Assembly: GCF_053078305.1 (NCBI RefSeq)
Contig: NZ_CP166879.1
Strand: one strand, 5' to 3'
DNA: 64,000 nt
Position numbers and translations under genes: made by a program. Of the stretch, positions 2,930 through 61,527 are shown in pieces. The notes below the pieces were generated by a model. It searched no databases and was not told the DNA's origin. It saw only the letters and a program-made list of their open reading frames with translations. Within the stretch, counting starts at the first letter, position 1. Each line of letters begins with the position of its first letter.

Positions 2930-2931
2930 AT

Positions 2932-3771: not shown

Positions 3772-3863
3772 AGGTTGTACTCCCGGCTTATGAGCTGGTT
3801 TGCTTGCCGGATGCGGCGTGAACGCCTTATCCGGCCTACGGGGCGGTGCGAATGCAGGCGTCG

Positions 3864-6026
3864 TTATTTCGCATCCGACTTATATTCGTATTCGTAATAG
3901 CCATAATCCTGATACGCGCTGGCGCGGCGGAAGATGGAGTTCAGAATCACCCCTTTCACCGGAATACCATTTTGCTCAAAGCGGCTCAGACTGGTTTCCA
4001 CTTCTTTCAATGTGTTGACCGCATAACGCGCCACCATTAACGTGGTTCCGACATGACGACCAACAATTGCGGCATCGGTCACTGCCAGAATCGGCGGCGT
4101 ATCAATCAACACCAGGTCGTAGTTTTTACTCGCCCAGTTCACCAGTTCGGCAAAGCGTTCGCTCATCAACAATTCAGAAGGATTTGGCGGTACCTGACCG
4201 CGCGGGATCAGGTCAAATTTGGCAATCGAAGTGGGTTTAGCAGCGGTAGTAATATCGCCCTGACCAATCAGAATTTCCGACAGGCCATTGACGTTATTGG
4301 TGCCCAACAGCTCGTGGGTGTAGCCTTTGCGCATATCGCAGTCGATCAACAATACGCGTTTATTAGTCTGGCTAATGACCGCCGCCAGGTTAGCGCAGAC
4401 AAAGGTTTTACCGATTGACGGGCTAACCCCGGTCATCATCAACACATTGTTCTGCGCCTGCATCATCGCGAAGTGCAGACTGGTACGCAGACTGCGGATG
4501 GCTTCAATCGCCAGATCGGTTGGATTCCCCACCGCCAGTAGCTGGCTCTGTTTATAGCGTTTAACTCCTTTGATGGTTTTGACGCTATCGCGCGCTTTCT
4601 GCCATTCCGACAACGGGATGCTGGCATAGACGCTGATACCGTGTTCTTCCAGCACTTGCGGGCTTTCAATGCCGCGATTAAACAACGAGCGCAGCAGTAC
4701 ACCCACGATAGAGAGCATCAGGCCGAGGATAATCGCCCCAAGGATAATCAGCCCTTTCTTCGGTTTCAGTACACCTGGCTGGGTGATTGCCGGGTCAACA
4801 ATGCGCACATCGCCGACGGTGCTGGCCTCGGTGATTTTCAGCTCCTGCTCTTTATTCAGCAGTTGCATATAGACCTGCTGACCAGACTCGACATCGCGGG
4901 TCAGACGCACAATTTCCTGCTGGGTTTTCGGCATCGCCGTTACGCGACCATTAAGTTTGGCTTTTTCGTCTTCCAGCGCCTGCCGTTTCTCCAGCAGCGT
5001 GCGGTACGCCGGGTGAACTTTGGTGTACAGCTTGGAGATTTCCGCCTCTTTAAAGGTCAGTTCGTTCAACTGCGCGTCGATGTTCACCATCGAATCGAGC
5101 ACCGCTTTCGCTTCCAGCGGCAGATCAACAGAATCTTTATCCTGACGGAAGGCATTCAGTTTGTTTTCGGCAACATCAAGGCGGCTACGTACTTCCGGTA
5201 ACTGTTGCGCGAGGAAAGCGAGACTTTTCGACGCTTCCGCCGATTTGCGCTCAATATTTTGTTCCTGATAGTTACGGGCGATGCTGTTAAGAATGTCGCG
5301 GATCTGTTCGCGATCTTCACCGGTATAAGTCAGGCTCAGTACGCCTGCGTCTTTGCCGTTCTCCGTTACCGTCAGGCTGTTTTGCAGTTGATTGATCATC
5401 CCCAGCGTGGAGTATTTGGTGACGGTAAACTCACTGCCCGGGCTGGCGTGAATGGCTTCAACCATCAGTGTGACGCCTTCTTTTTTCAGCATCTGGCCCG
5501 CTTGCCCACGGGCGCTAAAGCCGCCATCACTGCTCAGGGTGTAGTTTTTGTCATCCAGCACATTAAGCGTAAACACCTGATCCGCCATCTCTTTCGGACG
5601 GTTAAAGGTAGTCACTTTCACCGTCTCGTTCTGGCGTCCCATCAGGCGATCCCAGCCCGCACCGAAAATCGGGAACGTGTTTTTGCTCACCGCAATATCG
5701 AGGTCGAGATCGTCCACCGTTTTACCAAGCACCAGGCGCGAACGAATCAACTGGATCTCGGCGTCCGATGCTGGCGGTTTGTTGGCTAACGCCGATCCGA
5801 TATCCTGCACTAACGAATTGCCGCTGCTTTGCTCGATTTGTACCAGTGCGTCGGCACTATAAATCGGCGTGGCGAAGAAGGTGTAAACCACGGCACAAAG
5901 GGCGAATACAGCGGTGATGCCAATCACCCACCAGCGCGCTTCAATGACGGTGCCGACCAGGCGACCAATATCGATTTCATCACTGCCCGTTACCGGAGCG
6001 GCATGTTGTTTTACTTTTTCTGTCAT
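3864..6026 (-). CDS. wzc: tyrosine autokinase / polysaccharide co-polymerase
   Basis: ~720 aa from internal Met MTEKVKQH; Walker A GVSPSIGKT; C-terminal Tyr-rich tail YQDYGYYEYEYKSDAK. Confidence 0.9.
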   Translation of the reverse strand: MTEKVKQHAAPVTGSDEIDIGRLVGTVIEARWWVIGITAVFALCAVVYTFFATPIYSADALVQIEQSSGNSLVQDIGSALANKPPASDAEIQLIRSRLVLGKTVDDLDLDIAVSKNTFPIFGAGWDRLMGRQNETVKVTTFNRPKEMADQVFTLNVLDDKNYTLSSDGGFSARGQAGQMLKKEGVTLMVEAIHASPGSEFTVTKYSTLGMINQLQNSLTVTENGKDAGVLSLTYTGEDREQIRDILNSIARNYQEQNIERKSAEASKSLAFLAQQLPEVRSRLDVAENKLNAFRQDKDSVDLPLEAKAVLDSMVNIDAQLNELTFKEAEISKLYTKVHPAYRTLLEKRQALEDEKAKLNGRVTAMPKTQQEIVRLTRDVESGQQVYMQLLNKEQELKITEASTVGDVRIVDPAITQPGVLKPKKGLIILGAIILGLMLSIVGVLLRSLFNRGIESPQVLEEHGISVYASIPLSEWQKARDSVKTIKGVKRYKQSQLLAVGNPTDLAIEAIRSLRTSLHFAMMQAQNNVLMMTGVSPSIGKTFVCANLAAVISQTNKRVLLIDCDMRKGYTHELLGTNNVNGLSEILIGQGDITTAAKPTSIAKFDLIPRGQVPPNPSELLMSERFAELVNWASKNYDLVLIDTPPILAVTDAAIVGRHVGTTLMVARYAVNTLKEVETSLSRFEQNGIPVKGVILNSIFRRASAYQDYGYYEYEYKSDAK

Positions 6027-6028
6027 TC

Positions 6029-6472
6029 TTATACCTGCTCTGCGTTCAATGCCTGCGCCCACTGGCGGGCAGACCGTTCAAGTAATGTGTACACCGCTGC
6101 AAACGTTTCCCGGCTTTTGCGATACGGATCGGGGATTTCACATTCGTTATCCCAGTGACCAAACAGCATCACTTTGCCGCGCATCTCGGGTGCCATCTCG
6201 CATAAGCGTTCGATATGGCGCTTTTCCATGGTCAAAATCAGGTCATAGTTGCGACACAGGCGGCGGCTGATTTGTCGTGCACAGTGGCCTTCCAGAGACA
6301 GTTGATGTTCTGCGGCGACGCTGATAGCGGTAGGATCAGCGCCCTTACCGACCAGCGCGCCGAGTCCAGCGGACTCCACTTTCAGTTCCGGGTGATAACG
6401 TTGCAGTAAGCGTTCCGCCGTCGGGGAACGGCAAATATTGCCGACACAGACAACTAATATGTTGTTAAACAT
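6029..6472 (-). CDS. wzb: low-molecular-weight protein-tyrosine phosphatase
   Basis: 147 aa; N-terminal CVGNICRSP phosphatase P-loop motif. Confidence 0.9.
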   Translation of the reverse strand: MFNNILVVCVGNICRSPTAERLLQRYHPELKVESAGLGALVGKGADPTAISVAAEHQLSLEGHCARQISRRLCRNYDLILTMEKRHIERLCEMAPEMRGKVMLFGHWDNECEIPDPYRKSRETFAAVYTLLERSARQWAQALNAEQV

Positions 6473-6477
6473 GACGA

Positions 6478-7617
6478 TTACCAGTTATGAATGTCGCTGG
6501 CTGTATCCGTCATGTAACGGACACCGCTAATAGTTGGCAGCAACTGATTGATCAGACGGTTCCAGCGGGAAACCGGGGCGGTGGTGACATACACCACGTC
6601 ATAAGGTTGCAGGCGGAATTCTGTCGCCATCACCAGCGACGTGGCATCGGACATATCCAGCTGGTAGATATTGGCAATCTTGCCGTTACGCCCGCCCTCG
6701 CCTTTCAGCGGACGAATGACAAAGATGCCGCTGGCGTTGGAGGTGGTCATGTCGATGCCTTCAGCATTGCCCAGGGCTTCAGTCAGGGTCATGCCGCTAA
6801 AGTCCATTTTCAGGGTGCTCTGTTTCTTCACTTCACCCATCACAAATACTTTCAGATCATCATTACGTGGCACGTAGAGAATATCGCCGGGGTAAAGCAG
6901 GCGATTCTGGTTGAGGTCGCCGTTTTGCATCAGCGCCTGCAAAGAAATGCGCTCTTCACGACCATTGTGTGTTAGCACCACGTTGCGCCAGTCAGCGGTG
7001 TCGGTCAGGCCACCTGCGGCGTTGATGGCATCGAGAATGGTCAGTGGTACGTTGGTAATCGCCTGTTGACCGGATTTATTCACCTGGCCGGAGATATAGG
7101 CTTTTTGCGAGCGGAAGGCGGCGATATTAACGTCCACCTGCGGGTCAGCGATGTACGTCGCTAAGCGCCCGGTAATATCACTGCGGATTTCAGCGAGCGT
7201 TTTCCCCACGACGTGAACCTTGCCGATATACGGGTAGAACATGGTGCCGTCAGGCTGTACCCAGTTGCCGGTGTCGCTGGAACTGCGGTACTGACCAGCT
7301 GGCGTGGTGAGTTCCGGGTGATCCCAGACGGTGACATTAAGAACGTCGCCCGGCCCGACGCGATACTGGTAATTCGCGATCTCGCTTTCCAGCGTCATAT
7401 TGGGGCGCGCTACATTCGGGCGTGGGCGTAATTGGTCAATCAGGCGCGGGGTCAGCGGATACACATTCACCATTTTGTCGAGATCGAAATCAGCGTCCTG
7501 CTGTTTGATGACGTCTTTGCCCATCGTCGACATATTGCTGCCCGGAAGTACTGTGCAACCGCTTATCAAGGTTACTGACACCAATAATGGCATCAATTTC
7601 ATTTTGGATTTCATCAT
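6478..7617 (-). CDS. wza: outer-membrane polysaccharide export lipoprotein
   Basis: 379 aa; signal peptide with lipobox LISGC; conserved position upstream of wzb/wzc. Confidence 0.9.
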
Positions 7618-7794
7618 TGTTTATTTATCACTTTGGCAGAGTAATTATCCTGTGCACTATTAATAGCAATGTCGCCATGCACATTTACCTTGCAGTTAAT
7701 TGAATAAAAATTTAACTGGCATCAGTCCTAAAAAAATTGATTTCATCCGCAGGCTATTGACAGAATAATTCAGACTGGCTTTCAGGCATCCAGA

Positions 7795-7806
7795 CACGCT
7801 ACCGCC
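7795..7806 (-). promoter_or_regulatory. ops element (RfaH-dependent antitermination site, part of JUMPstart) in wza leader
   Basis: minus-strand sequence GGCGGTAGCGTG matches ops consensus GGCGGTAGnnTG, ~180 bp upstream of wza start. Confidence 0.6.
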
Positions 7807-8274
7807 CCTGGCTTTTTAGCTACCAATACACTGATTTAGCTTAATTTTTAAAACCCTCTCAACATACAGTCGTTGATGAGAAAGGGTTATTGCGGAAATT
7901 AACTTCCGAATATAAGGTGACATTATGGTAATTGAATATTGGCTCTCCAATAATGCAGGAGGAAGTGTTACAGCTAACGGAATAGCAGGCAAGGTAACAA
8001 TTCGGCAATTGGCTATTTTTAAGAATTATATTAAGTGTCATTCAATATGGTTTTTAGGAGTTTCTTTAGGTTGACAATATTTAATATTGCGTCTCCACAT
8101 GCGATATTTCTTAAATAATGTTTTATTATTACCACTTTTAATTCAGGGATAATGTGAGGTTATTACCCTCAAATAATATGAGATAAATAGTGCTGCAACA
8201 TTGCATTTTTGCCCCGATTTATCCATGATCGAATTGTGACATTTGTCATACAACGAATAGGTTTTGTACTTACT

Positions 8275-8898
8275 ATGGAATGGATTGCCGATCCGTCTAT
8301 CTGGGCCGGGTTAATCACGCTGATTGTGATCGAACTGGTCCTCGGCATTGATAATCTGGTCTTTATTGCCATCCTCGCCGAAAAACTACCGCCGAAGCAG
8401 CGCGACCGCGCACGGGTTACCGGGCTGTTGCTGGCGATGTTAATGCGCCTGTTACTGCTGGCGTCAATCTCCTGGCTGGTCACCCTGACTCAACCGCTGT
8501 TCAGCTTCCGCTCGTTTACCTTTAGCGCCCGCGACTTAATCATGCTGTTTGGTGGTTTCTTCTTGTTGTTCAAAGCCACGATGGAGCTGAACGAACGGCT
8601 GGAAGGGAAAGACAGCAATAACCCCACGCAACGCAAAGGTGCGAAGTTCTGGGGGGTGGTGACACAAATTGTGGTACTGGACGCCATCTTCTCACTCGAC
8701 TCGGTGATTACAGCCGTCGGGATGGTCGACCATTTACTGGTCATGATGGCCGCCGTGGTTATCGCTATCAGCCTGATGTTGATGGCCAGCAAGCCGTTAA
8801 CGCAATTTGTTAACAGTCACCCGACCATCGTTATTCTCTGCTTAAGCTTCCTGTTGATGATTGGCTTTAGCCTGGTGGCAGAAGGTTTCGGCTTCGTG
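8275..8898 (+). pseudogene. yegH: yegH (TerC-family membrane protein) 5' fragment, interrupted by prophage left end
   Basis: ORF begins [18 protein letters not shown]... and carries only ~208 codons of a ~527-aa protein before reading into phage end and a stop at 8899-8901. Confidence 0.8.
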
Positions 8899-9075
8899 TA
8901 ACCAGGTGAATCATTTGATACCAACGAGGGTTTTAGTGAAAGGAGGTGAAATCACCTGTAAGATACTGAAATAAAACAGGTGATACCAATGCGAGCGCGG
9001 AAAGTCTATTTGATACCGATTGTGCAATAATTAGTCGTTTATTCTAAAATCGGCAACACTTTTGATACTACGGAT
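8897..9075 (+). repeat. prophage left end (attL-like) with transposase-binding-site repeats
   Basis: TTTGATACC at 8914 and 9009, TTTGATACT at 9061, GTGATACCA at 8979; spacing (about 17, 112, 164 bp from terminus) resembles Mu L1/L2/L3; terminus begins TGTA. Confidence 0.6.
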
Positions 9076-9168
9076 TGACGCTTAAAATGGTTTTAAAAAG
9101 GCTTAAAACGCTTTTCTCCAGATTGTCTTTAAAGGAGTGTACCACAGCACAAAATTTGCACCACTCCC

Positions 9169-9729
9169 TTACGCACTAGCCTTTTTCTGGGTTACATTTA
9201 AATGATTAACCTTAGCTTCACATTCTTCATAAATCTCTCTTGCTTCAGAATCTGACATATCCTTTAACCTTAAAGCAAGCTCTCGGCGAAAACCGCTAAG
9301 TGCATGTAATTCCTGAATATTATCATCCAATAAGATCGTTAGAAAATCAGCCCCCTTTCTGCCAAGCAATCGGGCTAATTCTAGTTGCTCATCGGTGCTG
9401 AGAGAGGACAGAATTGCCGTAATTGTTTGATTTGCATTATCTAAATTACCTGCATCGACAGTTGAACAACATGGAGTGCTTGGGGTATTTTCATCAGAAC
9501 CAAAAGCTAACCAATTTAAACTCACGTGCTCTTTATTTGATATAAGGCAAGCCATTTTAAAAGAGGGTTCTGTGCCTTTGTGTATGTAGTTATTTAAGGT
9601 TGATACAGGAACCCCCCAATCCTTTGCTGCTGCCCTTACACTCCGCGTCCCGATCAGGCTTAGTAAGCGGGCTTTAAAACTTTCTTTTCCTGGTGCATCA
9701 AAAGAAAAATTTCCATTCTCTTCAATCAT
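9169..9729 (-). CDS. Mu c-type lysogeny repressor
   Basis: 186 aa, leftward gene next to left end, divergent from ner; N-terminal DNA-binding region; position identical to Mu Repc. Confidence 0.75.
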   Translation of the reverse strand: MIEENGNFSFDAPGKESFKARLLSLIGTRSVRAAAKDWGVPVSTLNNYIHKGTEPSFKMACLISNKEHVSLNWLAFGSDENTPSTPCCSTVDAGNLDNANQTITAILSSLSTDEQLELARLLGRKGADFLTILLDDNIQELHALSGFRRELALRLKDMSDSEAREIYEECEAKVNHLNVTQKKASA

Positions 9730-9914
9730 TTTTTCTTTTCCTCATAACATATTGAAATAAAAAGAGATAACCAAATAAAACCCACTTCAGCCCACGGAGA
9801 CAAAAGAAAAAGCTATTTTTGCTTTACATGGACTACATTTGGATCAATACTTGTATCAAACTTGATAACAAAATTTAGTTATCAAATTTCGTAACTTTTT
9901 AGGATAGATGAATC
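9730..9914. promoter_or_regulatory. early operator / divergent promoter region between c and ner
   Basis: AT-rich 185-bp intergenic region between divergent repressor and ner genes, as in Mu; individual sites not resolved. Confidence 0.45.
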
Positions 9915-10145
9915 ATGGCGAGAAATGAAGTTAAGCCTGATTGGCATCCTCAAAGAATCTTGGGGGAAGTCAGAGCCAGAGAAGGAAGTATGAGGGCGCT
10001 GGCCCGTAAAGCTGGCGTAGGTCAGAACAACCTGTACAACGCGGTATACCGTCATGTTCCCAAGTATGAGGGGATTATTGCGGAATGCCTAGGTGTGCCA
10101 CCCGAGGAGATTTGGCCCAGCCGCTACATTCGTAAGGTCGCGTAA
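9915..10145 (+). CDS. ner: Ner-like DNA-binding protein
   Basis: 76 aa; first gene of early operon; HTH region LARKAGVGQNNLYNAVYR typical of the Ner/Nlp family. Confidence 0.8.
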   Translation: MARNEVKPDWHPQRILGEVRAREGSMRALARKAGVGQNNLYNAVYRHVPKYEGIIAECLGVPPEEIWPSRYIRKVA

Positions 10146-10147
10146 TT

Positions 10148-12235
10148 ATGTTTGCTTCAGTTAAAGAGCTGGTTGGATTACCGGGAATGCCGGGAACGGA
10201 GCAAGGCGTCCGCTATTCAATCAGGAAGTATGCAACCAGCGAAACCAGCAGACGCCGCCAGGAAGGCAGTAAAGGTTTTGAATACAGCATCGACTGTTTA
10301 CCTGAAGTGACGCAGCAGGCATTGCGTGAGCGCTACGCCCTGCAACTGATGACGCAAAAAGTCGATGAATCACCGGCTCCGGTGGTGACAAAGGCCAGAC
10401 GCTCGCCTGCCGTGGTTGATGCGGTGGAGGCATATCGCGGATCACCACAACTGATGGTTGAACGCCTTAATGCCCTGACTGAAAACCAGCGCCAGGTGGC
10501 TGATGCACGAATCGCGATCGTCAGCGAAGTGATGAAAGTCGCGCAACACCCCGGTTTCAGCTGTGCGAAAGCTATCCGGTTTATCGTTGACAACCTGGCA
10601 CGTTCGCAACTGGACGAGCGCATTGTGGCAATGGTTGAGACGGCGAACGCCAAAAAGGGAAACAGCCGTGCGTTGAGTGAAATAACGCTGAAACGCTGGA
10701 TTGCGGCCTTTAACAAGGCGCAGAACGCCGCTGAACGCCTGCTTTTACTGGCACCGGGTAAGCGCCAGGAAATAAAAGCCGAAGATATTAACTGGCTGCC
10801 CGAATTTCTGGCGCAGTATCGCCAGTCAAACGGCCGACCAATGACCGAGGCTTACGAGGATTTTGTCGCTGAATGGCAGCACCGGCACGCTGATGAGCCT
10901 TATATGCTCGATATCATGCCGTCTTATGACACCATTCGCCGCGCAATGAAGAAACTGCCGGAAGTGGTGAAACAAAAAGGCCGGGTGACCGGCAGTGAAT
11001 ACCGCCAGCTTGAGGGATTCACGCGCCGCGACTGGTCCAGAATGCCGGTGAATTATGTCTGGATTGGTGACGGTCACGGCATGAAGCTGAAATGCGCACA
11101 CCCGGTTCACGGTCGGCCATTTGCACCGGAAGTGACCTTTGTTATCGACGGTGGCACGCGCTTTGTGGTGGGCTGGAGCCTTGACCTGGCTGAAAATGTT
11201 TTCGCCGTAGCCGGTGCCATACAGCACGGCATTCGCCATCACGGCAAACCGTTTCTGTATTACTCGGATAACGGCTCCGGGGAAACCGCCGACATCCTGG
11301 ATAAGGAGGTTGTGGGGATACTGCCGCGACTGGGGATTAATCACCCGACCGGGATTGCCGGTAATCCGCAGGGACGAGGCATTATCGAACGGCTTAACCG
11401 CACATTACCGATGCGCATAGCCCGTAAATACCGCACCTATTTCGGGAAAGGTGCAGATCGCGAGACGTTACGCAAAACCAACCGCGATTTACGCTCGGCA
11501 TTTACTGCCCTGCAACAGGGCAAACGGCTGAACGTCCGGCAGCAGTCAGCGATGCGTGATTTACCGTCCTGGTCTGAACTGATTGATGCCATTCGTGACG
11601 GTGTTGAGTGGTACAACAACCGGCCGCACGATGAATTACCGGTGAAGCCGAACGGCAAGCATTACAGCCCGGCGGAGTTCAGAAAAAAACGCCTGGCGGA
11701 AGAGGACACGGAAATTGAATGGCTGTCCGATGTTGAGCTGCGGGATATGTTCCGGCCGATGGTGGAACGCCCTGTAAGACGCTGTGAAATACGCTGGCTG
11801 AATAATATTTACTACGCGCCCGAGCTGCGTGACGAGCATGGTCGTAAGGTGCTTATCAGCTATGACATTCATGATGCCGAACGAATTACCGTACGTCGCC
11901 TGGATGGCAGCGTGATTTGCGAGGCGGTATGGGACGGTAATAAACGCGAAGCCTTCCCGGTTAGTGCGGAATACTACAAACAGCAGCAACGCCTTAAAGG
12001 CATGCGTAAACGCGCAGAGGAAAAAATCCGTGATGCCGAGGATGAGGTTGTCAACGTGCTGGAGCACAAGCCGCAGGAGCCCTGGCTGGAAAACATCTAT
12101 CGCCCGGTAGGTAATACGGTGGCCGTTCAGCAACCGGTCGCTGACGATGAACCTGATGAAGAATACGAGCGTAATTTCCAGCGGGGATTGCAGTTGCTGG
12201 AAGCGAAATTAAAAGAAAATGACCCGCTGGCCTGA
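10148..12235 (+). CDS. MuA-like DDE transposase
   Basis: 695 aa; position after ner; central integrase-like core; size and order as MuA. Confidence 0.9.
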   Translation: MFASVKELVGLPGMPGTEQGVRYSIRKYATSETSRRRQEGSKGFEYSIDCLPEVTQQALRERYALQLMTQKVDESPAPVVTKARRSPAVVDAVEAYRGSPQLMVERLNALTENQRQVADARIAIVSEVMKVAQHPGFSCAKAIRFIVDNLARSQLDERIVAMVETANAKKGNSRALSEITLKRWIAAFNKAQNAAERLLLLAPGKRQEIKAEDINWLPEFLAQYRQSNGRPMTEAYEDFVAEWQHRHADEPYMLDIMPSYDTIRRAMKKLPEVVKQKGRVTGSEYRQLEGFTRRDWSRMPVNYVWIGDGHGMKLKCAHPVHGRPFAPEVTFVIDGGTRFVVGWSLDLAENVFAVAGAIQHGIRHHGKPFLYYSDNGSGETADILDKEVVGILPRLGINHPTGIAGNPQGRGIIERLNRTLPMRIARKYRTYFGKGADRETLRKTNRDLRSAFTALQQGKRLNVRQQSAMRDLPSWSELIDAIRDGVEWYNNRPHDELPVKPNGKHYSPAEFRKKRLAEEDTEIEWLSDVELRDMFRPMVERPVRRCEIRWLNNIYYAPELRDEHGRKVLISYDIHDAERITVRRLDGSVICEAVWDGNKREAFPVSAEYYKQQQRLKGMRKRAEEKIRDAEDEVVNVLEHKPQEPWLENIYRPVGNTVAVQQPVADDEPDEEYERNFQRGLQLLEAKLKENDPLA

Positions 12236-12306
12236 AATAAAAAAATAACCCGAGCGGCGACTCAGGTTATTTGATTAAACAAGGTATCAAATGAGAGGTT
12301 AATAAT

Positions 12307-13239
12307 ATGACTGATATTAACGATGTAATCAAGACCATTGATGAACTTATTGATGGCGGCGTACTGACGCAGTATGCCATCGCCAGAGAGGCGGGAATTT
12401 CCGACGGCACATTATCGGCTTTCCGTAAGGGAAAATATAAAGGCGATAACGCTGCTGTGGCTGCTTCCCTGCGTTCCTGGTATGAGAACTGGAATAAACA
12501 AAGCGCACTGCCGGAACCGCCGCAGTTTGTGGAAACGCAGACAGTCCAGGAGCTGCGCGCACTGTTTCAGGCGGTTCGTCTGATGGGCTGTATTAACGTT
12601 ATTGTGGGCGTACCGGGTGTGGGTAAAACGGCCACTGCCCGTAATTACTGCCAGGAGCAACCAAACACCTGGATGATCACCCTGTCACCCGCGCACTCCA
12701 GCGTCACGGAGTGTCTGCTGGAGCTGGCCGATGCGCTGGGGATTGATTACACCCGCGCGAACAAAGGGGCATTATCCCGCGCCATCCGCCGTCGCCTGAT
12801 GGGAACGCGTGGACTGGTGATTGTGGATGAGGCGGATCATCTTGGTATTGACGGTCTGGAGCAACTCCGGGCAATTCAGGACGCCACGGGGATCGGGATG
12901 GTGCTTATTGGTAACCCGCGCGGATTGTTTAAAGGTGGACGCCGCGCCTTTGATGATTTATCGCGCCTGTTCAGCCGTCTTGCCCGTACAAAACAACTTC
13001 GCAAGGCCAAAAAGGCGGATGTGCTGGCCATTGCCAGGGCATGGGGTATCAGTGGTGAGGCCGAGCTGGCCGTCATGCAGGCTATCGCTGAAAAGCCCGG
13101 TGCGTTACGTGTTCTGACACATACGCTTAACCAGGCGTGGCTCACAGCCAGCGGTGAAGGCGCGGCGCTGACAGAAAAACATATTAATGCGGCCTTTAAA
13201 GAGGTTTATACCAACCCTGAATTACTCTCACAGGTGTGA
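12307..13239 (+). CDS. MuB-like AAA+ ATPase, transposition target activator
   Basis: 310 aa; Walker A GVPGVGKT; Walker B VIVDEADHL; clear similarity to Mu B as recalled. Confidence 0.9.
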   Translation: MTDINDVIKTIDELIDGGVLTQYAIAREAGISDGTLSAFRKGKYKGDNAAVAASLRSWYENWNKQSALPEPPQFVETQTVQELRALFQAVRLMGCINVIVGVPGVGKTATARNYCQEQPNTWMITLSPAHSSVTECLLELADALGIDYTRANKGALSRAIRRRLMGTRGLVIVDEADHLGIDGLEQLRAIQDATGIGMVLIGNPRGLFKGGRRAFDDLSRLFSRLARTKQLRKAKKADVLAIARAWGISGEAELAVMQAIAEKPGALRVLTHTLNQAWLTASGEGAALTEKHINAAFKEVYTNPELLSQV

Positions 13240-13463
13240 TTATGGCGGTATTTAATATTCCTGATATTTACGGACGCTTTTACCTGGTTAATTTCGATAA
13301 CGTGAAGGTGATTTCACTGGCCGAAAATAAAGAATGTGGCGATTTACTTTTTGAATTTAATGACCGCACACGAATGGTGATATCTGCCGGACTTGATCGC
13401 GAAGGTGCGACAGACGTTTACAGCGGAATATGCCGTTCTGTTGGTGCGAAACAAGTCAGCTAA
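13236..13463 (+). CDS. small early protein (Kil position)
   Basis: 75-aa ORF overlapping B stop by 4 bp; same position and size as Mu kil; no motif confirmed. Confidence 0.4.
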   Translation: MIMAVFNIPDIYGRFYLVNFDNVKVISLAENKECGDLLFEFNDRTRMVISAGLDREGATDVYSGICRSVGAKQVS

Positions 13464-13730
13464 ATGAGGTGTTATATGAATATGCAATCCTGCGGTAACA
13501 AAATGAATTTATTCGACTCCCTGAACAGCGCGCGCCGTCTGACCGAACTTGCCGGTGCGGTACTGGAACGCAGTAAGCGCTATCCGCAACGTTTTGCACT
13601 GAAAACCACGCCGCCGGTAGGCAACGTGCAGGGAACCGGTGAAATTGAAATCACCATACAGACCAACGGCCTGCGCCGCCGTGTGAAGGCCACCCGCATC
13701 AGCGGCTGCACGGTTTACTGGGAGGTGTGA
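13464..13730 (+). CDS. early-region hypothetical protein
   Basis: 88-aa ORF tightly packed in early operon. Confidence 0.4.
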   Translation: MRCYMNMQSCGNKMNLFDSLNSARRLTELAGAVLERSKRYPQRFALKTTPPVGNVQGTGEIEITIQTNGLRRRVKATRISGCTVYWEV

Positions 13731-13731
13731 G

Positions 13732-14013
13732 GTGAAAAAAAATCTCATTGCATGGGCGTGGTCGAGTGGTCTTATTGAGTTTGGTTACGTCCTGCCGGAA
13801 GGTGCATTGCCGATAGTTGCCGGAAAGCCTGTCACGGTACGGCATGTGATTGAGGTTATGGCGCGTCATGGACGTGATGAACAGGAGCAGTTACTGGTTC
13901 CGGGGATACCGGAAGCGGTGACGGAGGAAGAAGCCTTTAATGCCATGATTCGGTTCTGCCGTGAGGTCAGACGCCGGGTCAGTTATCCAAACAGAACGAG
14001 GACCAGAGGATGA
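13732..14013 (+). CDS. early-region hypothetical protein
   Basis: 93-aa ORF, 2 bp after previous stop. Confidence 0.4.
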   Translation: MKKNLIAWAWSSGLIEFGYVLPEGALPIVAGKPVTVRHVIEVMARHGRDEQEQLLVPGIPEAVTEEEAFNAMIRFCREVRRRVSYPNRTRTRG

Positions 14014-14282
14014 GTAAAGTCGTACGCATTATTTTCGAATACAAGGAGCACGTTATCCATAAAAACGCTGATGGAACAGTGCGCATGGGGGTAAGTCTGG
14101 ACATACGTTCAACCGGGATAAAGCAGAAAGGTGATGGACCCGCCATGATTTTTGGAGTGGTTATGCTCGCGGAAAGCAGAGACTTTGCTGAACTTGTGGC
14201 AATGAAAGCCAGTGCGCTCATGAAAGATATGAGCATGCGTTCCGGGGTTATTAAAGGTAATGAATTTAATCAGCAGGGGTAA
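14010..14282 (+). CDS. early-region small protein, paralog 1 of tandem pair
   Basis: 90 aa; N-terminus MSKVVRIIFEYKEHVIHKNADG resembles next gene. Confidence 0.45.
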   Translation: MSKVVRIIFEYKEHVIHKNADGTVRMGVSLDIRSTGIKQKGDGPAMIFGVVMLAESRDFAELVAMKASALMKDMSMRSGVIKGNEFNQQG

Positions 14283-14286
14283 TTCC

Positions 14287-14580
14287 ATGAGCAAAGTACG
14301 CGTTATTTTTGAATTTAAGCATGTTTCGCATGACGAAAAACCGGCAGGTAATGACTGTGTTGAAGTGCATGAAAAGATTGGTGTGGATGTAAAAACAGAA
14401 CGTGATACGAATAACAGGCCGACGTCACTCTGTGACGTTTATGCAAGTATTCTCCAGTATCACAGTCCTGAAATTATTCAGTTTCTCTCAGCGGAATTTC
14501 AGGCATCTGTACAGGCTTTTGGGGCGGATGCCATCATTAAACGCCACCGCGTGCATAAAGCATCAGGCACACTGCAATAA
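14287..14580 (+). CDS. early-region small protein, paralog 2 of tandem pair
   Basis: 98 aa from internal Met; MSKVRVIFEFKHVSHDEKPAGN parallels previous ORF. Confidence 0.45.
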   Translation: MSKVRVIFEFKHVSHDEKPAGNDCVEVHEKIGVDVKTERDTNNRPTSLCDVYASILQYHSPEIIQFLSAEFQASVQAFGADAIIKRHRVHKASGTLQ

Positions 14581-14591
14581 GGAAAAACAAA

Positions 14592-15122
14592 ATGGCTAAA
14601 CGTGTTACAAAATTAAAGGCCGCAGCCGAGGCTGCACCGCAGACCCGCGAAGAAGTCAGCCGCGATATCCGTACCCTGGGCGATATTCAGCGAGAGGCGC
14701 TACGGCTGGAAACGGCGATGAATGATGAAGTGGCAGAAATCACCGCCCGTTATACGCCGCAGATTGAAAACCTTAAAAAAGAAATCAAAGTGCTTTTTAA
14801 GGGGATTCAGGACTGGTGCAAAACCAACCGCGATGAGCTGACGAACGGCGGCAAAACCAAAACAGTCAATCTGACCACCGGCACGGTGTCATGGCGGCTG
14901 GGAACGCCATCATGCAGCGTCAGCCGTGATGTGGAAGGTGTGATTGAAATGCTGCGCCGTATGGGGCTTGAGCGATTCATCCGCACGAAAGAGGAAGTGA
15001 ACAAGGAAGCGGTCCTGGCGGAGCCGGATGCGGTGAAAGGGATTGCCGGTATTAAGGTAAATAAAGGCGCTGAAAGTTTTTATGTCGAGCCTTTTGAACA
15101 GGACGCCGGACTGAATAAATAA
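14592..15122 (+). CDS. gam: Gam-like host-nuclease inhibitor (Ku-like DNA-end binding protein)
   Basis: 176 aa; strong similarity to Mu Gam as recalled (RLETAMNDEVAEITARY, NRDELTNGGKTKT, GLERFIRTKEEVNKEA). Confidence 0.85.
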   Translation: MAKRVTKLKAAAEAAPQTREEVSRDIRTLGDIQREALRLETAMNDEVAEITARYTPQIENLKKEIKVLFKGIQDWCKTNRDELTNGGKTKTVNLTTGTVSWRLGTPSCSVSRDVEGVIEMLRRMGLERFIRTKEEVNKEAVLAEPDAVKGIAGIKVNKGAESFYVEPFEQDAGLNK

Positions 15123-15219
15123 CACCACATTAAATCTTTAAATATCACATCGTTTTAATTATGGCGCTCGCGTCAGGGGACTGCCTGCGCCTGTAAACTG
15201 AAAATAAGGAACAGGAAAT

Positions 15220-15762
15220 ATGGCATATTTTTATTTCAAATTAGACCGTGTGCAGACAAATAAATATTTCACCAAATATCAACAGACTGTTTTACCGCTA
15301 CGCAACAGTATTCTTCGGGCATTACTGAAAAATACAGGCGCTGCCGGATTGCGCTTAAAGCCGTTCGCCATGGACAGAATCAGTGAGTTTTATTTTTCCG
15401 GTGCTCTGCCTGCGGGCTGGCGTAAGCGCGATGATGTGGCTTTTATCGGGGACGGACCGTGCTTTATTGCCAGACCTGATGAGTTATGCCCTGAAGGACC
15501 GGCGATTGCCGCAATGGTTGAAGCCGCTGAACGCGATTTAAGAAAGCGTCCTGATTTCCTTGTCTGGCTCTGTGAAAAGCTGGGGGTAATGAGAATCCCC
15601 TCCATGTTTAACATGGACTCCTGGTGGACCCCGTCACTCTCCCGTGATGCCCTGTGCGTGGTGTTTAAAGTAGGCGCTTATGGCAGGGAAATAAACGGGT
15701 GTATTCCTGAAGAATGCCAGGAAATTAAACATTCTGAATATGTGGCGCTGACGGAGGAATAA
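15220..15762 (+). CDS. early-region hypothetical protein
   Basis: 180-aa ORF. Confidence 0.4.
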   Translation: MAYFYFKLDRVQTNKYFTKYQQTVLPLRNSILRALLKNTGAAGLRLKPFAMDRISEFYFSGALPAGWRKRDDVAFIGDGPCFIARPDELCPEGPAIAAMVEAAERDLRKRPDFLVWLCEKLGVMRIPSMFNMDSWWTPSLSRDALCVVFKVGAYGREINGCIPEECQEIKHSEYVALTEE

Positions 15763-15765
15763 TTC

Positions 15766-16299
15766 ATGATTGATGCAAAAGTGCTTGAAGGGGTTAAAAA
15801 CTGGCTGAGTATTTACGGGCGTCTGACCTGCGGAGTTCTGGCTGAAAAAATGAATATGCCGCCATCCTCGATGGTTTATTTTCTGCGTGATGCGGTTGAT
15901 GCCGGGGTGCTGACGGAATGTAACGGTTTTTATGATATTCCGCGTCCCCGCCCGGTGCAGCCGGTTCGTCGCAAATGCAGCCAGGAGTCTGCGGCTGATG
16001 ATGTTCAGTGGTGCAGCTTCAGAAAATCCCTGCCGTGGATTGAGGGGCATGATATTCCGTCGATGGCGTGGGAATTTGCTCAGGGCATACTGACCTGTGA
16101 AACCGTTTATGTGGTGGCTGAAGTTGATGAGCAGGCCATGAAAGAAGGTGTACCCCAGTTTGTGATGGCGTATATCGACATACGCCTGGGTGTCATTATC
16201 TGCGGTTTAAGCGGCTGGAATATCACCGGACATGTTCTGCGTTACCTGATTGTTGACCGGACAGCGGCACCGGCCGCGATTTCTGCGGAGGTGGCGTAA
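15766..16299 (+). CDS. early-region hypothetical protein
   Basis: 177-aa ORF. Confidence 0.4.
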   Translation: MIDAKVLEGVKNWLSIYGRLTCGVLAEKMNMPPSSMVYFLRDAVDAGVLTECNGFYDIPRPRPVQPVRRKCSQESAADDVQWCSFRKSLPWIEGHDIPSMAWEFAQGILTCETVYVVAEVDEQAMKEGVPQFVMAYIDIRLGVIICGLSGWNITGHVLRYLIVDRTAAPAAISAEVA

Positions 16300-16814
16300 T
16301 GTTCTTTAAAACATCGAACCCTGCCGCGCTGGCCGCGTGGCAAAAATATCAGCAGGACTGCCAGACGGTAAAAGATGAGGCGAAACGCCTTGAGGCCGTG
16401 CTGAATGTTGCGTGCCGGTCGGTATTTGAATTCAGTATCAGTGGTTTTTGTTTTAAGGGACTGCGTTTTACGGAGGACAAATATCCTTTTCATCGTGATT
16501 TATGGCGAAAACCAACTGCGTCGAATGGCTGGAGCTGCACACCGCGCACATCACGTATTCCCAAAGCCCTGCGCGTTGCCTCTGACGAACTTAACAGTCT
16601 GTGGCGTGAATATTCGCCCGTCACGTATGCCAGAACCGATGCACTGTTGTTCTGGCTGGGCATTGATTTCTCGGCAATCCTGTTTGGCCCTGTGGAGTGG
16701 TTCTGCGTTGACGATGTGATTTACCTTCAGTGCGGCGTAAAACCCGCAAAACAGAAAATGACCGAAATTCTGTCTGATGAGTTTTATGCTGCTGAAAAGC
16801 GAGTCAGGGGGTGA
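16299..16814 (+). CDS. early-region hypothetical protein
   Basis: 171-aa ORF. Confidence 0.4.
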   Translation: MFFKTSNPAALAAWQKYQQDCQTVKDEAKRLEAVLNVACRSVFEFSISGFCFKGLRFTEDKYPFHRDLWRKPTASNGWSCTPRTSRIPKALRVASDELNSLWREYSPVTYARTDALLFWLGIDFSAILFGPVEWFCVDDVIYLQCGVKPAKQKMTEILSDEFYAAEKRVRG

Positions 16815-16817
16815 TGC

Positions 16818-17369
16818 ATGATGATATTACAACCCATGGGGAGAAAAGGCAGTGCACCCGCTCATGTTCGCGCATGGACACCTGAAGAAGATGCGCTGCT
16901 GATTGCGCTTTATCCATCCACCCCGGTTAAGGATATTGCTGTCAGGGTAAAAAGAAGTTTCTGGGGTGTACATCACCGGATTGTTTTATTACGCGGCACT
17001 TACCCGGAGTTGCTCAAATGCAAACGTCCAAGATTTAAACATGATGAAGATAAATTTATCCGAAAAAATGCCAGAACGATGACCGGTAAGCAAATAGGAG
17101 AATATCTGGGGCGAGACCGGGATTCTGTCCACAATCGGGCGCGATATATTGGCGTAAGCATGAAAAAATACGGAGAATTGCTGCCCTTCACCCGTATATC
17201 TGATGATGATGTTCGTCTTATTCGTGAATTACGGGATGCTGAATCACCACGACGTCTTACCTTCCGGGAAATAGGCGAGAAATTTGAATTATCCGAGAGT
17301 ACGGTAAATTTTATTTATCACCATCGCCGGACTGCCGAAGATGTTGTATTACGGGAGTTAATGCCATGA
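16818..17369 (+). CDS. putative DNA-binding protein with three Myb/SANT-like helix-turn-helix repeats
   Basis: 183 aa; three ~45-aa repeats each with an acidic triplet and a basic helix (WTPEEDALLIALY..., FKHDEDKFIRKNARTMTGKQIGEYLGR..., ISDDDVRLIRELRDAESPRRLTFREIGEKF...). Confidence 0.45.
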   Translation: MMILQPMGRKGSAPAHVRAWTPEEDALLIALYPSTPVKDIAVRVKRSFWGVHHRIVLLRGTYPELLKCKRPRFKHDEDKFIRKNARTMTGKQIGEYLGRDRDSVHNRARYIGVSMKKYGELLPFTRISDDDVRLIRELRDAESPRRLTFREIGEKFELSESTVNFIYHHRRTAEDVVLRELMP

Positions 17370-17677
17370 TAACGACATTATTTGTTGAATCAGACGAGCC
17401 TCTGGTATGTGCCGCCGGAATGTCGGTTTGTGGCGGAACGCTGACCGGTGTTTATTTCGGGGATTTGCGCGGTTATCCCTGGCATTCACTGGATGACGCA
17501 TTTCCGCCTGATATGGAGGCAGTCGTGCTGATTGTTCAGTATGGTGACCAACAGGAACTGCGCATCGGCCATATGGGGTATGAAGGCTTTTTTATTGATG
17601 AAGAAACCGGAGCCTGCCTTGAAGATGAGGACGGACAGGTGACGCACTGGTGCCATATTTCAGCTTTACCGGAATGA
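17366..17677 (+). CDS. early-region hypothetical protein
   Basis: 103-aa ORF overlapping previous stop by 4 bp. Confidence 0.4.
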   Translation: MITTLFVESDEPLVCAAGMSVCGGTLTGVYFGDLRGYPWHSLDDAFPPDMEAVVLIVQYGDQQELRIGHMGYEGFFIDEETGACLEDEDGQVTHWCHISALPE

Positions 17678-18042
17678 CGGGAGGTGAATGCGTGAGAAGT
17701 TATATTGATAATGAAAAACTGAAGACAATCAGCGACTGTCTTAGCTTGCTGGCAAAAATAAAAGAAACCATTGAAGAGATTAAATTTCAGCTTGAATACG
17801 CACCCTGTGGTGATGATACATGGCGTAACTCTGCCAGAAAAGCACTGGCTGTCTTTCAGAAACAACGCCGGACTGTTGAATACCGCCTTGCTGTATTACG
17901 CCAGGAGGAAAAGGAAAGAAATATAAGATGTCACGAGCGCGTTAATAACTTCCTTGTTCGTGAATTAAAAGAACGTGTGCCGGAGTCGGTATTTTTTGAG
18001 TGTGAGGCTGTTGCCCGTAGCAAAGCACTGGAAACTGATTAA
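17650..18042 (+). CDS. early-region hypothetical protein (start uncertain)
   Basis: 130-aa ORF; likely starts at an internal Met near 17674. Confidence 0.35.
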   Translation: MPYFSFTGMTGGECVRSYIDNEKLKTISDCLSLLAKIKETIEEIKFQLEYAPCGDDTWRNSARKALAVFQKQRRTVEYRLAVLRQEEKERNIRCHERVNNFLVRELKERVPESVFFECEAVARSKALETD

Positions 18043-18054
18043 ACAGGCAGGTGA

Positions 18055-18390
18055 ATGATGAGTATTGAATTAAGATCGTCTTATGAATATCGTAAAATTC
18101 TCATCGCCGGAGGCATGAAACCGGAAGATGCAGAAAAAATTGTTTCTTTTATGGATAAAGAATGTGACAAACGGGATATGCCAGAAATTATTATGGATGA
18201 CATGATTCTGCATTCAGCCGTAGCGTTAAGCCCGTTATGGATTGTGCATTCTCTTGCTGAAATTGCCAAAGGCACCGATAAACAGGCAGCTGTTGCTGCC
18301 CTTCAGACGCTTAATGAAATGCGTATATCTCCACGCCCGACATTAATACATATGATTCTCTCCAGTATGGAGGATAAAGCAAATGAATAG
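18055..18390 (+). CDS. early-region hypothetical protein
   Basis: 111-aa ORF. Confidence 0.4.
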   Translation: MMSIELRSSYEYRKILIAGGMKPEDAEKIVSFMDKECDKRDMPEIIMDDMILHSAVALSPLWIVHSLAEIAKGTDKQAAVAALQTLNEMRISPRPTLIHMILSSMEDKANE

Positions 18391-18580
18391 TCTACCCGCT
18401 GGATGGGCGCGGCCACTAATGGCCAGGAAGCATCATTTTTTTAAAACAGGCGAAAATATCAGTATATGTGGACGGTGGTTATATCTGGCTCATAATCGCG
18501 AGCCGGATACATTTGAAAGCCCTGATGACTGTGCCGAATGCCGCAGAAGAGTGAATAAGGAGAAAGATAATGGACAATAG
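18383..18580 (+). CDS. small Cys-containing protein
   Basis: 65-aa ORF overlapping neighbours; CxxC near C-terminus (DDCAECRRR). Confidence 0.3.
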   Translation: MNSLPAGWARPLMARKHHFFKTGENISICGRWLYLAHNREPDTFESPDDCAECRRRVNKEKDNGQ

Positions 18581-18866
18581 TTCTCTGTTGTTCTGGTGCT
18601 TATATATCACATCCTTTTTCGGCGCATTTGTTATTACCCGGTGGTTATGTCGAAAAATCATCTGCTTTTTTGATAAAAGACATCCGGTTGAACGGGCGGC
18701 TGATGCGCTCATTCAGCAGGCCATTGTGTTATATAGCGGTGAATTTTTCTGCCGGATAACAACCAGAGATGGCTGGCACATAATGATTATTCCGCCAACA
18801 CACCATGCCCGGTGGGATGAGGCAGAAAAGGCTTTCCATGTCCGTAAAAAGGTAAATACGGTATGA
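18570..18866 (+). CDS. small protein with N-terminal transmembrane segment
   Basis: 98 aa; hydrophobic N-terminus LLFWCLYITSFFGAFVITRWL. Confidence 0.35.
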   Translation: MDNSSLLFWCLYITSFFGAFVITRWLCRKIICFFDKRHPVERAADALIQQAIVLYSGEFFCRITTRDGWHIMIIPPTHHARWDEAEKAFHVRKKVNTV

Positions 18867-19372
18867 GAGGAAAACTGATATCCGCCATTCATGTGGCAAA
18901 GCGCGAGCTTGCCCTGGATGATGAGACCTACACATTCGTACTACTGGCAGCCACCGGCAAAACCAGTTGCCGGGATATGTCACCCGGTGAGTTATCCCGC
19001 GTGCTGGATGTTTTCAAAAAACGCGGTTTTAAAGTGCGTCAGAAACCGGTTAACCGGGCCTTAAAACCGGGTACGGTGACCGCCAGAATTCGCGCCATCT
19101 GGAAAGTGATGCACCGGCAGGGCTTTATCTCTGATGGTGCGGAAACCGCTCTTAACCGCTGGGTGAAATCGCAGACGGCCGCGCAGAACGGCGGCGAAGG
19201 TGTGGCAAACTGGCAGTGGCTGGAGCAACACCCCGCCCTGGCCTCAGATGTGCTGGAGCGTCTCAAGCGATGGCACCGCCGCAAAATGCTGGCCGCGATG
19301 GGAATGCCCGAACGCACGCTGATGGGGTATGACGCCGTTTGCAGGCAGTATGAAAAATCACTTCCCCGTTAA
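18863..19372 (+). CDS. gemA: GemA-like regulatory protein (Mu gp16 family)
   Basis: 169 aa; last gene before terminator at the end of the early operon; N-terminal region resembles Mu GemA as recalled. Confidence 0.6.
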   Translation: MRGKLISAIHVAKRELALDDETYTFVLLAATGKTSCRDMSPGELSRVLDVFKKRGFKVRQKPVNRALKPGTVTARIRAIWKVMHRQGFISDGAETALNRWVKSQTAAQNGGEGVANWQWLEQHPALASDVLERLKRWHRRKMLAAMGMPERTLMGYDAVCRQYEKSLPR

Positions 19373-19378
19373 CCCCAA

Positions 19379-19407
19379 ATCCCGCCACAACGCGGGATTT
19401 TTATTTT
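19379..19407 (+). terminator. rho-independent terminator at end of early operon
   Basis: hairpin ATCCCGC-CACAAC-GCGGGAT followed by TTTTTATTTT immediately after gemA stop. Confidence 0.7.
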
Positions 19408-19441
19408 AAACTTACCGGGAACGCGAGAACCGGAGGCTGAT

Positions 19442-19867
19442 ATGGCAGAAACTCAGATGAGCATGTTTGGTGGTGACAGTGAGCAACTGCACGCCCTTAT
19501 CGACCGCCTTGATGACATCCCTGATGATGTTCTCAAAAAGAACTGGCCGCGGACCCTGTCAGAACTGGTTGAAGTCACCGGCGCAGAACTTCAGCGTCAG
19601 GGGATTGAGCCGGTACTGGCCGGTAAACTGGCACGCAAGGTGGCTGCGGCTCAGGCAGCCTATATGGGCGGACGGGGTTATTACCTGCCGGTCGGGGAAT
19701 CTCTCTTTGCCGAGCTGCGAAACAATGAGATATTTTCGCGCTGGGACCGGGGCGAGAAGATTGAATCCCTTCGCCGCCATTACCGGATGTCAGAAACCCA
19801 GATTTATACCGTCATACGTGAACAGCGCCGTCTGCATCTGGCAAGAACGCAACCGCCACTTTTCTGA
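19442..19867 (+). CDS. Mor/C-family transcriptional activator (late-gene activator)
   Basis: 141 aa; follows terminator and precedes lysis genes as Mu C; C-terminal HTH (RMSETQIYTVIREQRR). Confidence 0.7.
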   Translation: MAETQMSMFGGDSEQLHALIDRLDDIPDDVLKKNWPRTLSELVEVTGAELQRQGIEPVLAGKLARKVAAAQAAYMGGRGYYLPVGESLFAELRNNEIFSRWDRGEKIESLRRHYRMSETQIYTVIREQRRLHLARTQPPLF

Positions 19868-19938
19868 TATTCCGCAAAGCCTGCCGCCTCTCCTTCACCG
19901 TTACGCTGACTCAGAGAACATCATGAGACAGCGTAACA

Positions 19939-20439
19939 ATGCCAAAACTCCCCGCACCACTGCGTAAAAAGCTGATTGCCCTTGTTCTGGCCGGTGCCGG
20001 GACGTTCACGATTGCCACGCATTACACCGGTTACTGGGAAGGGAAAGAAAACTCCACGTATATCGATCCCACCGGTACACCCACCATCTGTTACGGCCAT
20101 ACCGGCCCGGATGTGAAACCGGGTATGACCCTGACAGATGAAGAATGCCTGGAACTACTGGAAAAGGACATGAAATGGGCCTTTGCGGCCATTGATCGGC
20201 GTGTTCAGGTGCCGCTTACCCGTGGTCAGACGGTGGCGCTGGCTTCGTGGATCTTCTGGGCCGGTGAAACGAACTTTCGCAACTCCACGCTTCTGCGCCT
20301 GATCAATGCCGGGCAGATGCCCGCGTCCTGTAAGCAGTATATCCGCTGGATTTATTCAAAGGGGGTGAAACTTCCCGGCCTTGAGGCCCGCCGTTCGGCG
20401 GATGAATGGTTATGTCGCTACGACTTGCCGAAAGTCTGA
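19939..20439 (+). CDS. endolysin (T4-lysozyme-like muramidase) with probable N-terminal SAR signal-anchor
   Basis: 166 aa; weakly hydrophobic Gly/Ala-rich N-terminus LIALVLAGAGTFTIA then catalytic region; position as Mu lys. Confidence 0.75.
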   Translation: MPKLPAPLRKKLIALVLAGAGTFTIATHYTGYWEGKENSTYIDPTGTPTICYGHTGPDVKPGMTLTDEECLELLEKDMKWAFAAIDRRVQVPLTRGQTVALASWIFWAGETNFRNSTLLRLINAGQMPASCKQYIRWIYSKGVKLPGLEARRSADEWLCRYDLPKV

Positions 20440-48039: not shown

Positions 48040-48177
48040 CTGGGCGCGAAGGAAAGTGGCGGTGCCGTTCAGACTCTGTTCAGAACACCAGTTACTCAGG
48101 TGAAGGTAGAGATTGGATGCGTAAAACTCGCGGTTCATTTGAGAGTTGAGTTTGAGAAGCATTCCAGCGGTTGCCAT
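48040..48177 (-). pseudogene. ftnB: ftnB (ferritin-like protein) 5' fragment, truncated by prophage right end
   Basis: minus-strand ORF begins [46 protein letters not shown] (ferritin-like N-terminus) then runs into phage end sequence. Confidence 0.7.
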
Positions 48178-49963: not shown

Positions 49964-50032
49964 TTTGCCGGAAAAATTCCCCTCTGCATGATGCAGAGGG
50001 GGTGTGAACGACCAGTGATTCACGGAGACGTT

Positions 50033-51547: not shown

Positions 51548-51561
51548 GTAAGGAGAGTATG

Positions 51562-54914
<3,353 letters not shown>

Positions 54915-61490: not shown

Positions 61491-61527
61491 TTCTCCCGAT
61501 TTCCTCAATTGAAATGAACCCGATGAT

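Follow-up and report, generated by a model that had tools for sequence, protein, structure and literature searches.

The closest described system to the gene treated here is D5 of the virulent phage T5 (T5.118, YP_006946), an early protein of 255 aa. The T5 record states that it binds DNA, is needed for both DNA replication and late transcription, and takes part in shutoff; its primary reference, according to the citation in PMC12630848, is McCorquodale et al. (1979, J Virol 29:322). Within the family, only T5 D5 is known to bind duplex DNA and to affect replication or late transcription. In the DRT4 paper, the T5 trigger is ORF55 and not D5. A smaller relative, gp9 or E8 (NP_050613, 99 aa), is encoded by phage Mu in its semi-essential early region; our literature search on Mu gp9/E8, on functions of the semi-essential region, and on D5-like proteins found no functional study. 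More distant comparisons lead to the eukaryotic Myb proteins with their R2R3 arrangement (c-Myb, B-Myb, and plant WER; Pfam PF00249), to the archaeal Cbp1, the CRISPR DNA repeat-binding protein of Sulfolobus (PDB 2lvs), and to GcrA of Caulobacter (PDB 5yiu; Pfam PF07750).

The gene under study lies in a 64,000-nt window, by which we mean the whole stretch of DNA that was analysed (contig NZ_CP166879.1 of RefSeq assembly GCF_053078305.1), and we confirm its 183-aa ORF on the plus strand at the coordinates first read. By profile comparison, its product is best placed as a member of the widespread D5-like family of phage proteins, a kind already known and not a new system, and we hold the assignment of fold and family with high confidence. 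The gene and the signals around it are the following.

16806..16811 (+): Shine-Dalgarno-like AGGGGG, 6 nt 5′ of the ATG, read from the sequence
16818..17369 (+): CDS of the D5-like triple-HTH protein, 183 aa, stop included, supported by the RefSeq CDS in an identical prophage, by PHROG 323 (E 1.2e-58), and by 31 homologues
17366..17369 (+): ATGA overlap of the gene's stop with the start of the next early ORF (17366..17677), from the sequence and the ORF list
19377..19400 (+): strong intrinsic-terminator-like hairpin 3′ of the gemA homologue, from a hairpin scan and the gene map

These features lie in a Mu-like transposable prophage that spans ~8898 to ~48040 of the window. Its gene map follows that of E. 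coli OkiPb01714, where an identical copy of the prophage has been annotated and the identical CDS is named 'DNA-binding protein' (WP_032307005.1) by RefSeq; the match to OkiPb01714 is limited to the prophage, the host flanks of the window being different. The early part reads, in order, repressor-like gene, ner-like HTH gene, Mu-type transposase, AAA ATPase, small early ORFs, and Gam, and continues with further early ORFs, a gemA/gp16 homologue, Mor, lysozyme, and the head and tail genes. Within this early part, a 93-aa ORF (13732-14013, +) belongs to PHROG 1518 'host nuclease inhibitor' (E 2e-42), and the Gam-family host-nuclease inhibitor (14592-15122, +) is encoded two genes downstream of it.

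The left end of the prophage is at 8897/8898 and the right end at ~48040, and the E. coli DNA on its two sides (2502-8897 and 48040-52000) does not join up: on the left is wza..yegH, broken off inside yegH, and on the right the araH/araG region. The remainder of yegH is absent from the window, and the left junction was found in no complete E. coli genome of our collection. Many strains carry 2-4 Mu-like prophage copies. The noncontiguous flanks suggest either recombination between two Mu-like prophage copies or a transposition-associated rearrangement. Rfam searches additionally place a JUMPstart element at 7795-7833 (−), ahead of the wza operon for colanic acid, and, in the right host flank, the sRNA C0465 at 61510-61587 (−); the whole window is free of tRNA genes.

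The gene itself is tightly fitted among its neighbours. The upstream ORF, a homologue of Mu gp12, stops at 16812-16814, 3 nt short of the ATG, and the ATGA overlap at the distal end indicates likely translational coupling inside the operon. The early transcript that carries the gene probably terminates at the 19377-19400 hairpin, a 9-bp stem followed by a T run that is situated between the gemA/gp16 homologue and the Mor gene. Mor may be split from the early transcript by this hairpin in the present prophage, whereas mor and the end of gemA overlap directly in the Mu record. With gp11/gp12 homologues on one side, the gemA homologue on the other, and starts and stops that are coupled, the gene can be placed inside a tightly packed early operon on the combined strength of the Shine-Dalgarno sequence, the 3-nt gap, the ATGA overlap, and the terminator after the gemA homologue. 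A promoter scan of the early region gave a result below shuffle expectation.

The family assignment derives from PHROG 323, 'transcriptional regulator, D5-like', in which residues 2-182 align with positions 80-256 of the 319-position profile, and which also scores T5 D5 (E 1.2e-71) and Mu gp9 (E 5e-29). When compared directly by hhalign, the family profile and T5 D5 align with 96.6% probability (E 5.7e-10) over 145 columns, residues 17-171 against 71-232, such that all three HTH units of the prophage protein are paired. Both are early phage proteins, the prophage gene being so classed from its layout. The differences are considerable: the ~70 N-terminal residues of T5 D5 have no counterpart in the 183-aa protein, T5 is virulent whereas the phage that carries our gene is temperate, and aligned identity is only ~27% over the 145 columns, which amounts to remote homology.

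Structure prediction, which the sequence-only reading had proposed as a check on its repeats, returned three three-helix bundles of the HTH type. The AlphaFold2 model, run on the family alignment (mean pLDDT 85, pTM 0.54), places these bundles at residues 22-59, 75-110, and 129-169, with helices at 22-31/37-43/48-59, 75-84/90-97/101-110, and 129-140/149-156/160-169, and the protein can be divided as follows.

16818..16874 (+): N-terminal arm, aa 1-19, consensus MxLxPMGxPGxxPAHxRxW (pLDDT 44-61; entropy 1.72 bits)
16866..16997 (+): unit 1, aa 17-60, a Myb/SANT-like three-helix bundle with a WTPEED motif and an invariant W20, from the model and profiles
17028..17156 (+): unit 2, aa 71-113, a Myb/SANT-like three-helix bundle that pairs with the first unit of Mu gp9, from the model and profiles
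17187..17327 (+): unit 3, aa 124-170, a divergent HTH that pairs with the second unit of Mu gp9, from the model and profiles
17328..17366 (+): C-terminal tail with a fourth helix at aa 173-181 and a conserved RxTAxDxxxRELLP, from AlphaFold2 and the family alignment

The N-terminal arm is conserved across the three-unit family yet predicted to be disordered; G11 and H16 are invariant in alignment A1, and the motif could act as an arm in the minor groove or as a short motif for interactions. Unit 2 begins with F72, a position occupied by W in some homologues (WTPEDD), and unit 3 has a longer connection between helices 1 and 2 than the other units.

The sequence-only reading had described three ~45-aa repeats, each with an acidic triplet followed by helices. 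The triplets are indeed present (EED at 23-25, DED at 76-78, and DDD at 129-131) with an exact period of 53 residues, and each opens helix 1 of a bundle in the AlphaFold2 model; the strict 45-aa length does not hold, as the units measure ~40-47 aa and are joined by ~10-aa linkers. Local alignment (Smith-Waterman) of the units within the single sequence, evaluated against 2000 shuffles, gave p = 0.32 for units 1 and 2, 0.07 for units 1 and 3, and 0.014 for units 2 and 3, and on this single-sequence comparison we do not consider the units significantly alike. Family profiles are more informative. With alignment A3, composed of 29 full-length homologues at 31-70% identity, hhalign relates unit 1 to unit 2 at 98.9% (E 1.9e-17, 43 columns), unit 2 to unit 3 at 93% (E 3e-7, 37 columns), and unit 1 to unit 3 at 84% (E 8e-6), the last over a 20-column HTH core only; a shallower alignment gave 98%, 55%, and 9% for the same three pairs. 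As judged from these profiles, units 1 and 2 are clearly homologous duplicates and unit 3 a more divergent relative.

This division into units is what connects the gene to Mu. The sequence-only reading saw no obvious Mu counterpart, a view that we must revise: Mu gp9/E8 matches units 2 and 3 (hhalign 97.9%, E 6e-13; 34% identity) and falls in the same PHROG 323, although nothing in it corresponds to unit 1, the N-terminal arm, or the C-terminal tail of the prophage protein. Both genes belong to the early operon of their transposable phage, but at different places, gp9 just upstream of gam and the prophage gene downstream of the gp11/gp12 homologues. The latter two genes (PHROGs 1949 and 2314) lie directly upstream, so that the prophage gene occupies the Mu gp13/gp14 place; the gp9 position before gam is filled in the prophage by other small ORFs. 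The early-region synteny with Mu shows mosaicism.

E. coli, Salmonella, and Citrobacter are rich in close homologues, with 1547 sequences in one 90% cluster, and the 2.5-kb region around the gene recurs in 231 of 5426 complete E. coli genomes. The 31 homologues that we collected for the 183-aa protein are full-length or partial. A full-length three-unit homologue is found in the P2-like Citrobacter phage Shae_phiSM, in the early operon between cox and a replication gene. Another three-unit homologue, from a lambdoid-type prophage, has kilR and exonuclease VIII nearby. Vibrio phages and phage D6 carry two-unit forms like gp9. An exhaustive profile search retrieved 13,317 representatives at E ≤ 1e-3, including many bacterial proteins with 4-10+ tandem units, and the viral structure library BFVD yielded 17 matches at E ≤ 1e-3, including entries named 'Myb-like domain-containing', 'D5 protein', and endonuclease. 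Given this wide spread among phages and bacteria, such proteins are not unusual in phages, and the opinion of the sequence-only reading that the product is unusual for a phage early protein does not stand: PHROG 323 is the T5 D5-like family, and multi-HTH/Myb-like phage proteins are numerous in the viral structure library.

We also observed, in metagenome contigs, bacterial proteins of 300-800 aa that carry 5 to 14 tandem copies of WTxEEDxxLxxxYxxxxxxEIAxxLGRSxxSVxxRAxxLGL (P0033, P0035, P0037, P0044, and P0083; loci L007:5001-6872 and L008:1709-3997), one of which begins with a fused helicase-like N-terminus. The tandem repeat array has no named model in either Pfam or NCBIfam.

The distribution bears on one alternative, that the protein is a sequence-specific transcription factor with one defined operator, i.e. 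a classical repressor or activator of a phage or host promoter, in place of general, D5-like binding to duplex DNA. Such a role is consistent with the transcription-regulation category of PHROG 323 and with an R2R3-like arrangement as in c-Myb, where R2R3 gives sequence-specific binding. However, the gene is found on unrelated backbones (Mu-like, P2-like, and lambdoid), and its movement between them makes a fixed cis target harder to reconcile. Nor is its neighbour conserved: the ~100-aa ORFs just downstream of three homologues looked suggestive of a partner gene, but are mutually unrelated and were rejected, and no other conserved neighbour of the three-unit gene was found. The early region, moreover, offers no standout repeated or palindromic candidate site, the repeats at 8700-20000 consisting only of short, chance-like families, and the Mu circuit (c, ner, mor, and C) is complete without such a gene. 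The variable recognition helices described below would fit co-evolution with phage-specific sites. On balance, we regard a single-operator regulator as unlikely, while giving it real weight.

The Myb/SANT likeness of the repeats required family profiles, as single-sequence tests were insufficient. The query sequence alone retrieves nothing significant from Pfam, NCBIfam, or the PDB (phmmer), with all its Pfam matches above E 1e-3: unit 3 draws HTH_AsnC-type (PF13404, 0.0057) and Sigma70_r4 (0.036), and unit 1 draws Myb_DNA-binding (0.62). When the homologues are searched, 6 of 27 match Myb_DNA-binding (PF00249) at E ≤ 1e-3 (the best at 9e-7), and 12 of 27 do so at E ≤ 0.1. The family profile, run against all PDB sequences, matches c-Myb R1R2R3 at E 2e-6, with the best stretch (residues 18-106) lying on R2R3 and taking in units 1 and 2 and the linker between them; further matches are to B-Myb (1.3e-4), to Trichomonas Mybs, and to the three-HTH Cbp1 (1e-3). 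A Foldseek search of the whole model against the PDB was uninformative, owing to the flexible links between the domains.

The units have the architecture of Myb/SANT domains, ~50 aa folded into three helices, of which the second and third form the HTH, and units 1 and 2 are arranged like eukaryotic Myb R2R3. The sequence hallmarks of Myb proper are largely absent. Of the three core Myb tryptophans, unit 1 keeps only W20, the second and third being replaced by aliphatic residues (V37 and L57 in the alignment), and unit 3 has none. The tryptophan positions stay hydrophobic, a trait shared with many Myb-like domains that have diverged. The residues through which c-Myb contacts bases, K128, E132, N136, K182, and N183, correspond to V51, I55, R59, H105, and N106, a match at N106 only, and the N106 column is variable in the family. 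The prophage protein further differs from eukaryotic Myb in its extra third unit, which is not Myb-like, and in its prokaryotic or viral origin. For units 1 and 2, the profile evidence justifies a predicted 'Myb/SANT-like fold', but not 'Myb specificity'. Of the three Myb/SANT-like repeats originally proposed, then, the tri-helical HTH form holds for all three and the Myb/SANT likeness for the first two, whereas unit 3 resembles a generic HTH of the AsnC or sigma-70 region 4 type.

Unit 3 is also the source of the name most often attached to these proteins. RefSeq mostly calls them 'AsnC family protein', with some 'SANT/Myb domain-containing protein', and HTH_AsnC-type (PF13404) matches unit 3 in 21 of 27 family members at E ≤ 0.1. 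We nonetheless find it scarcely credible that the protein is an AsnC/Lrp-family regulator: the RefSeq name and the weak PF13404 match speak for it, but only the HTH sub-model is matched, the C-terminal RAM/AsnC_trans_reg domain is missing, and the model is all-alpha with three HTH units. We rejected the AsnC family on this architecture, in which the ligand-binding (RAM) domain is absent, and the RefSeq label is an over-transfer from the short HTH match on unit 3. A sigma factor was likewise rejected on architecture (TIGR02937 at 14.2 bits against a cutoff of 42.9; the Sigma70_r4 match covers 23 residues). The likeness to GcrA is structural and confined to its DNA-binding domain; the prophage protein has three units, not one, and the GcrA model gives no significant Pfam match. 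Cbp1 is archaeal, whereas the surroundings of the prophage gene offer no CRISPR context, and the NCBIfam Cbp1 model does not match the query.

Charge and conservation are unevenly distributed over the protein. It is basic overall (pI 9.99), with a net charge of +3 in unit 1, +5 in unit 2, the most basic, and −1 in unit 3. Family-wide, the third helices carry a net charge of +2.4 to +3.3 and yet are the most variable element (2.3-2.7 bits), that of unit 3 included. The best-conserved elements (1.1-1.7 bits) are helices 1 and 2 of unit 3, linker 2 with its invariant K117 and G119, the N-terminal arm, and the C-terminal tail; the unit 3 motifs DxDVxLIRxLRD (helix 1) and LTFxEIGEKF (helix 2) rank first in the family, at 1.06 and 1.25 bits.

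Since unit 3 is close to neutral here and has a conserved surface away from the recognition helix, it could be a protein-binding rather than a DNA-binding module. The corresponding alternative is an adaptor in which units 1 and 2 tether the protein to DNA, while unit 3 and the tail, or the protein as a whole, act as a SANT-like or GcrA-like binder of a host protein, such as RNA polymerase or sigma-70, that would be redirected in early development. The contrast between conserved unit 3 elements and variable recognition helices points in this direction, as do the conserved acidic residues D129, D131, D140, and E154 in unit 3 and the weak similarities to sigma-70 region 4. Yet conservation of helices 1 and 2 can be explained by packing on the C-terminal helix, and the near-neutral charge is not general, the family mean for unit 3 being +1.4 with a basic third helix (+2.4). 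The GcrA sigma-interacting domain is lacking, neither GcrA nor sigma-70 is matched significantly in Pfam, and no partner gene is conserved alongside. We judge such an adaptor to be rather improbable.

Other matches raise the question of whether the protein is a free-standing DNA-targeting module from a homing endonuclease or methylase lineage, one that now has no catalytic domain and might guide these enzymes or block them, for instance in an immunity or competitor function. In mycobacteriophages, regions annotated as HNH endonuclease or DNA methylase resemble units 1 and 2 (35% identity, E 1e-6), weak PHROG matches to HNH/endonuclease families exist, phage endonucleases occur among the BFVD matches, and one homologue is followed, two genes on, by a DNA methylase gene. 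The PADLOC defence search produced nothing significant, its best match being a weak 'homing endonuclease' (E 0.006, residues 18-165); our results give no backing to the host-takeover or anti-defence role considered in the sequence-only reading. Against this origin, the protein consists of helices only and contains neither a nuclease nor a methylase domain, its best full-length relatives are D5-type regulators, and no endonuclease or methylase gene is adjacent in the prophage. We consider it very unlikely.

Our preferred reading, to which we assign a probability of roughly 0.55, is that the gene encodes an accessory early protein of the Mu-like transposable prophage that binds duplex DNA. Taken by itself, duplex-DNA binding is probable, while a D5-like regulatory role, which would be by analogy, is possible but doubtful. 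Counted against this reading are the loss of the c-Myb base contacts and of two of the three tryptophans in unit 1, the query's Pfam matches above E 1e-3, the near-neutral unit 3, the failure of the early-region search to reveal a repeated candidate operator, and the fact that the D5 analogy spans remote homology and a virulent versus a temperate phage. In its architecture, a flexible, conserved N-terminal arm precedes three HTH units connected by ~10-residue linkers and closed by a C-terminal helix. To judge from the layout, the gene would share a transcript with the transposase operon, and its translation would be coupled to that of its neighbours, which would lead to early production after induction or infection. 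The basic third helix of each unit would enter the major groove at successive positions, as in Myb R2R3 and Cbp1, so that the three units may read or coat ~15-20 bp; the variability of these helices may correspond to phage-specific sequence preferences or to loose specificity. Helices 1 and 2 of unit 3, with the C-terminal tail, may form a conserved surface that contacts a common partner or stabilizes the fold. By analogy with T5 D5, the protein might modulate transcription and/or replication of phage or host DNA early on, and, like the rest of the Mu semi-essential early region, it would be dispensable for basic growth.

A more speculative and improbable extension is that the D5-like family, Mu gp9 included, constitutes a portable early switch, loaded on DNA with phage-specific preferences by the Myb-like units 1 and 2, with the invariant surface of unit 3 and the tail recruiting or blocking a conserved host factor, for example RNA polymerase/sigma-70 or a replication protein. 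If this were true, transposable, P2-like, and lambdoid phages would share an unrecognized way of re-timing host or phage transcription and replication, and the family would offer a two-unit relative, of prokaryotic or viral origin, to the R2R3 arrangement of eukaryotic Myb.

Mu-like prophages are common in Shiga-toxigenic E. coli, and the present analysis supplies a concrete fold and family for an unannotated gene of their semi-essential early region. For the D5-like family, the RefSeq label 'AsnC family protein' is misleading. Finally, gp9/E8 of Mu, a classic model phage, is hereby linked to the T5 regulator D5, which provides a testable hypothesis for both.
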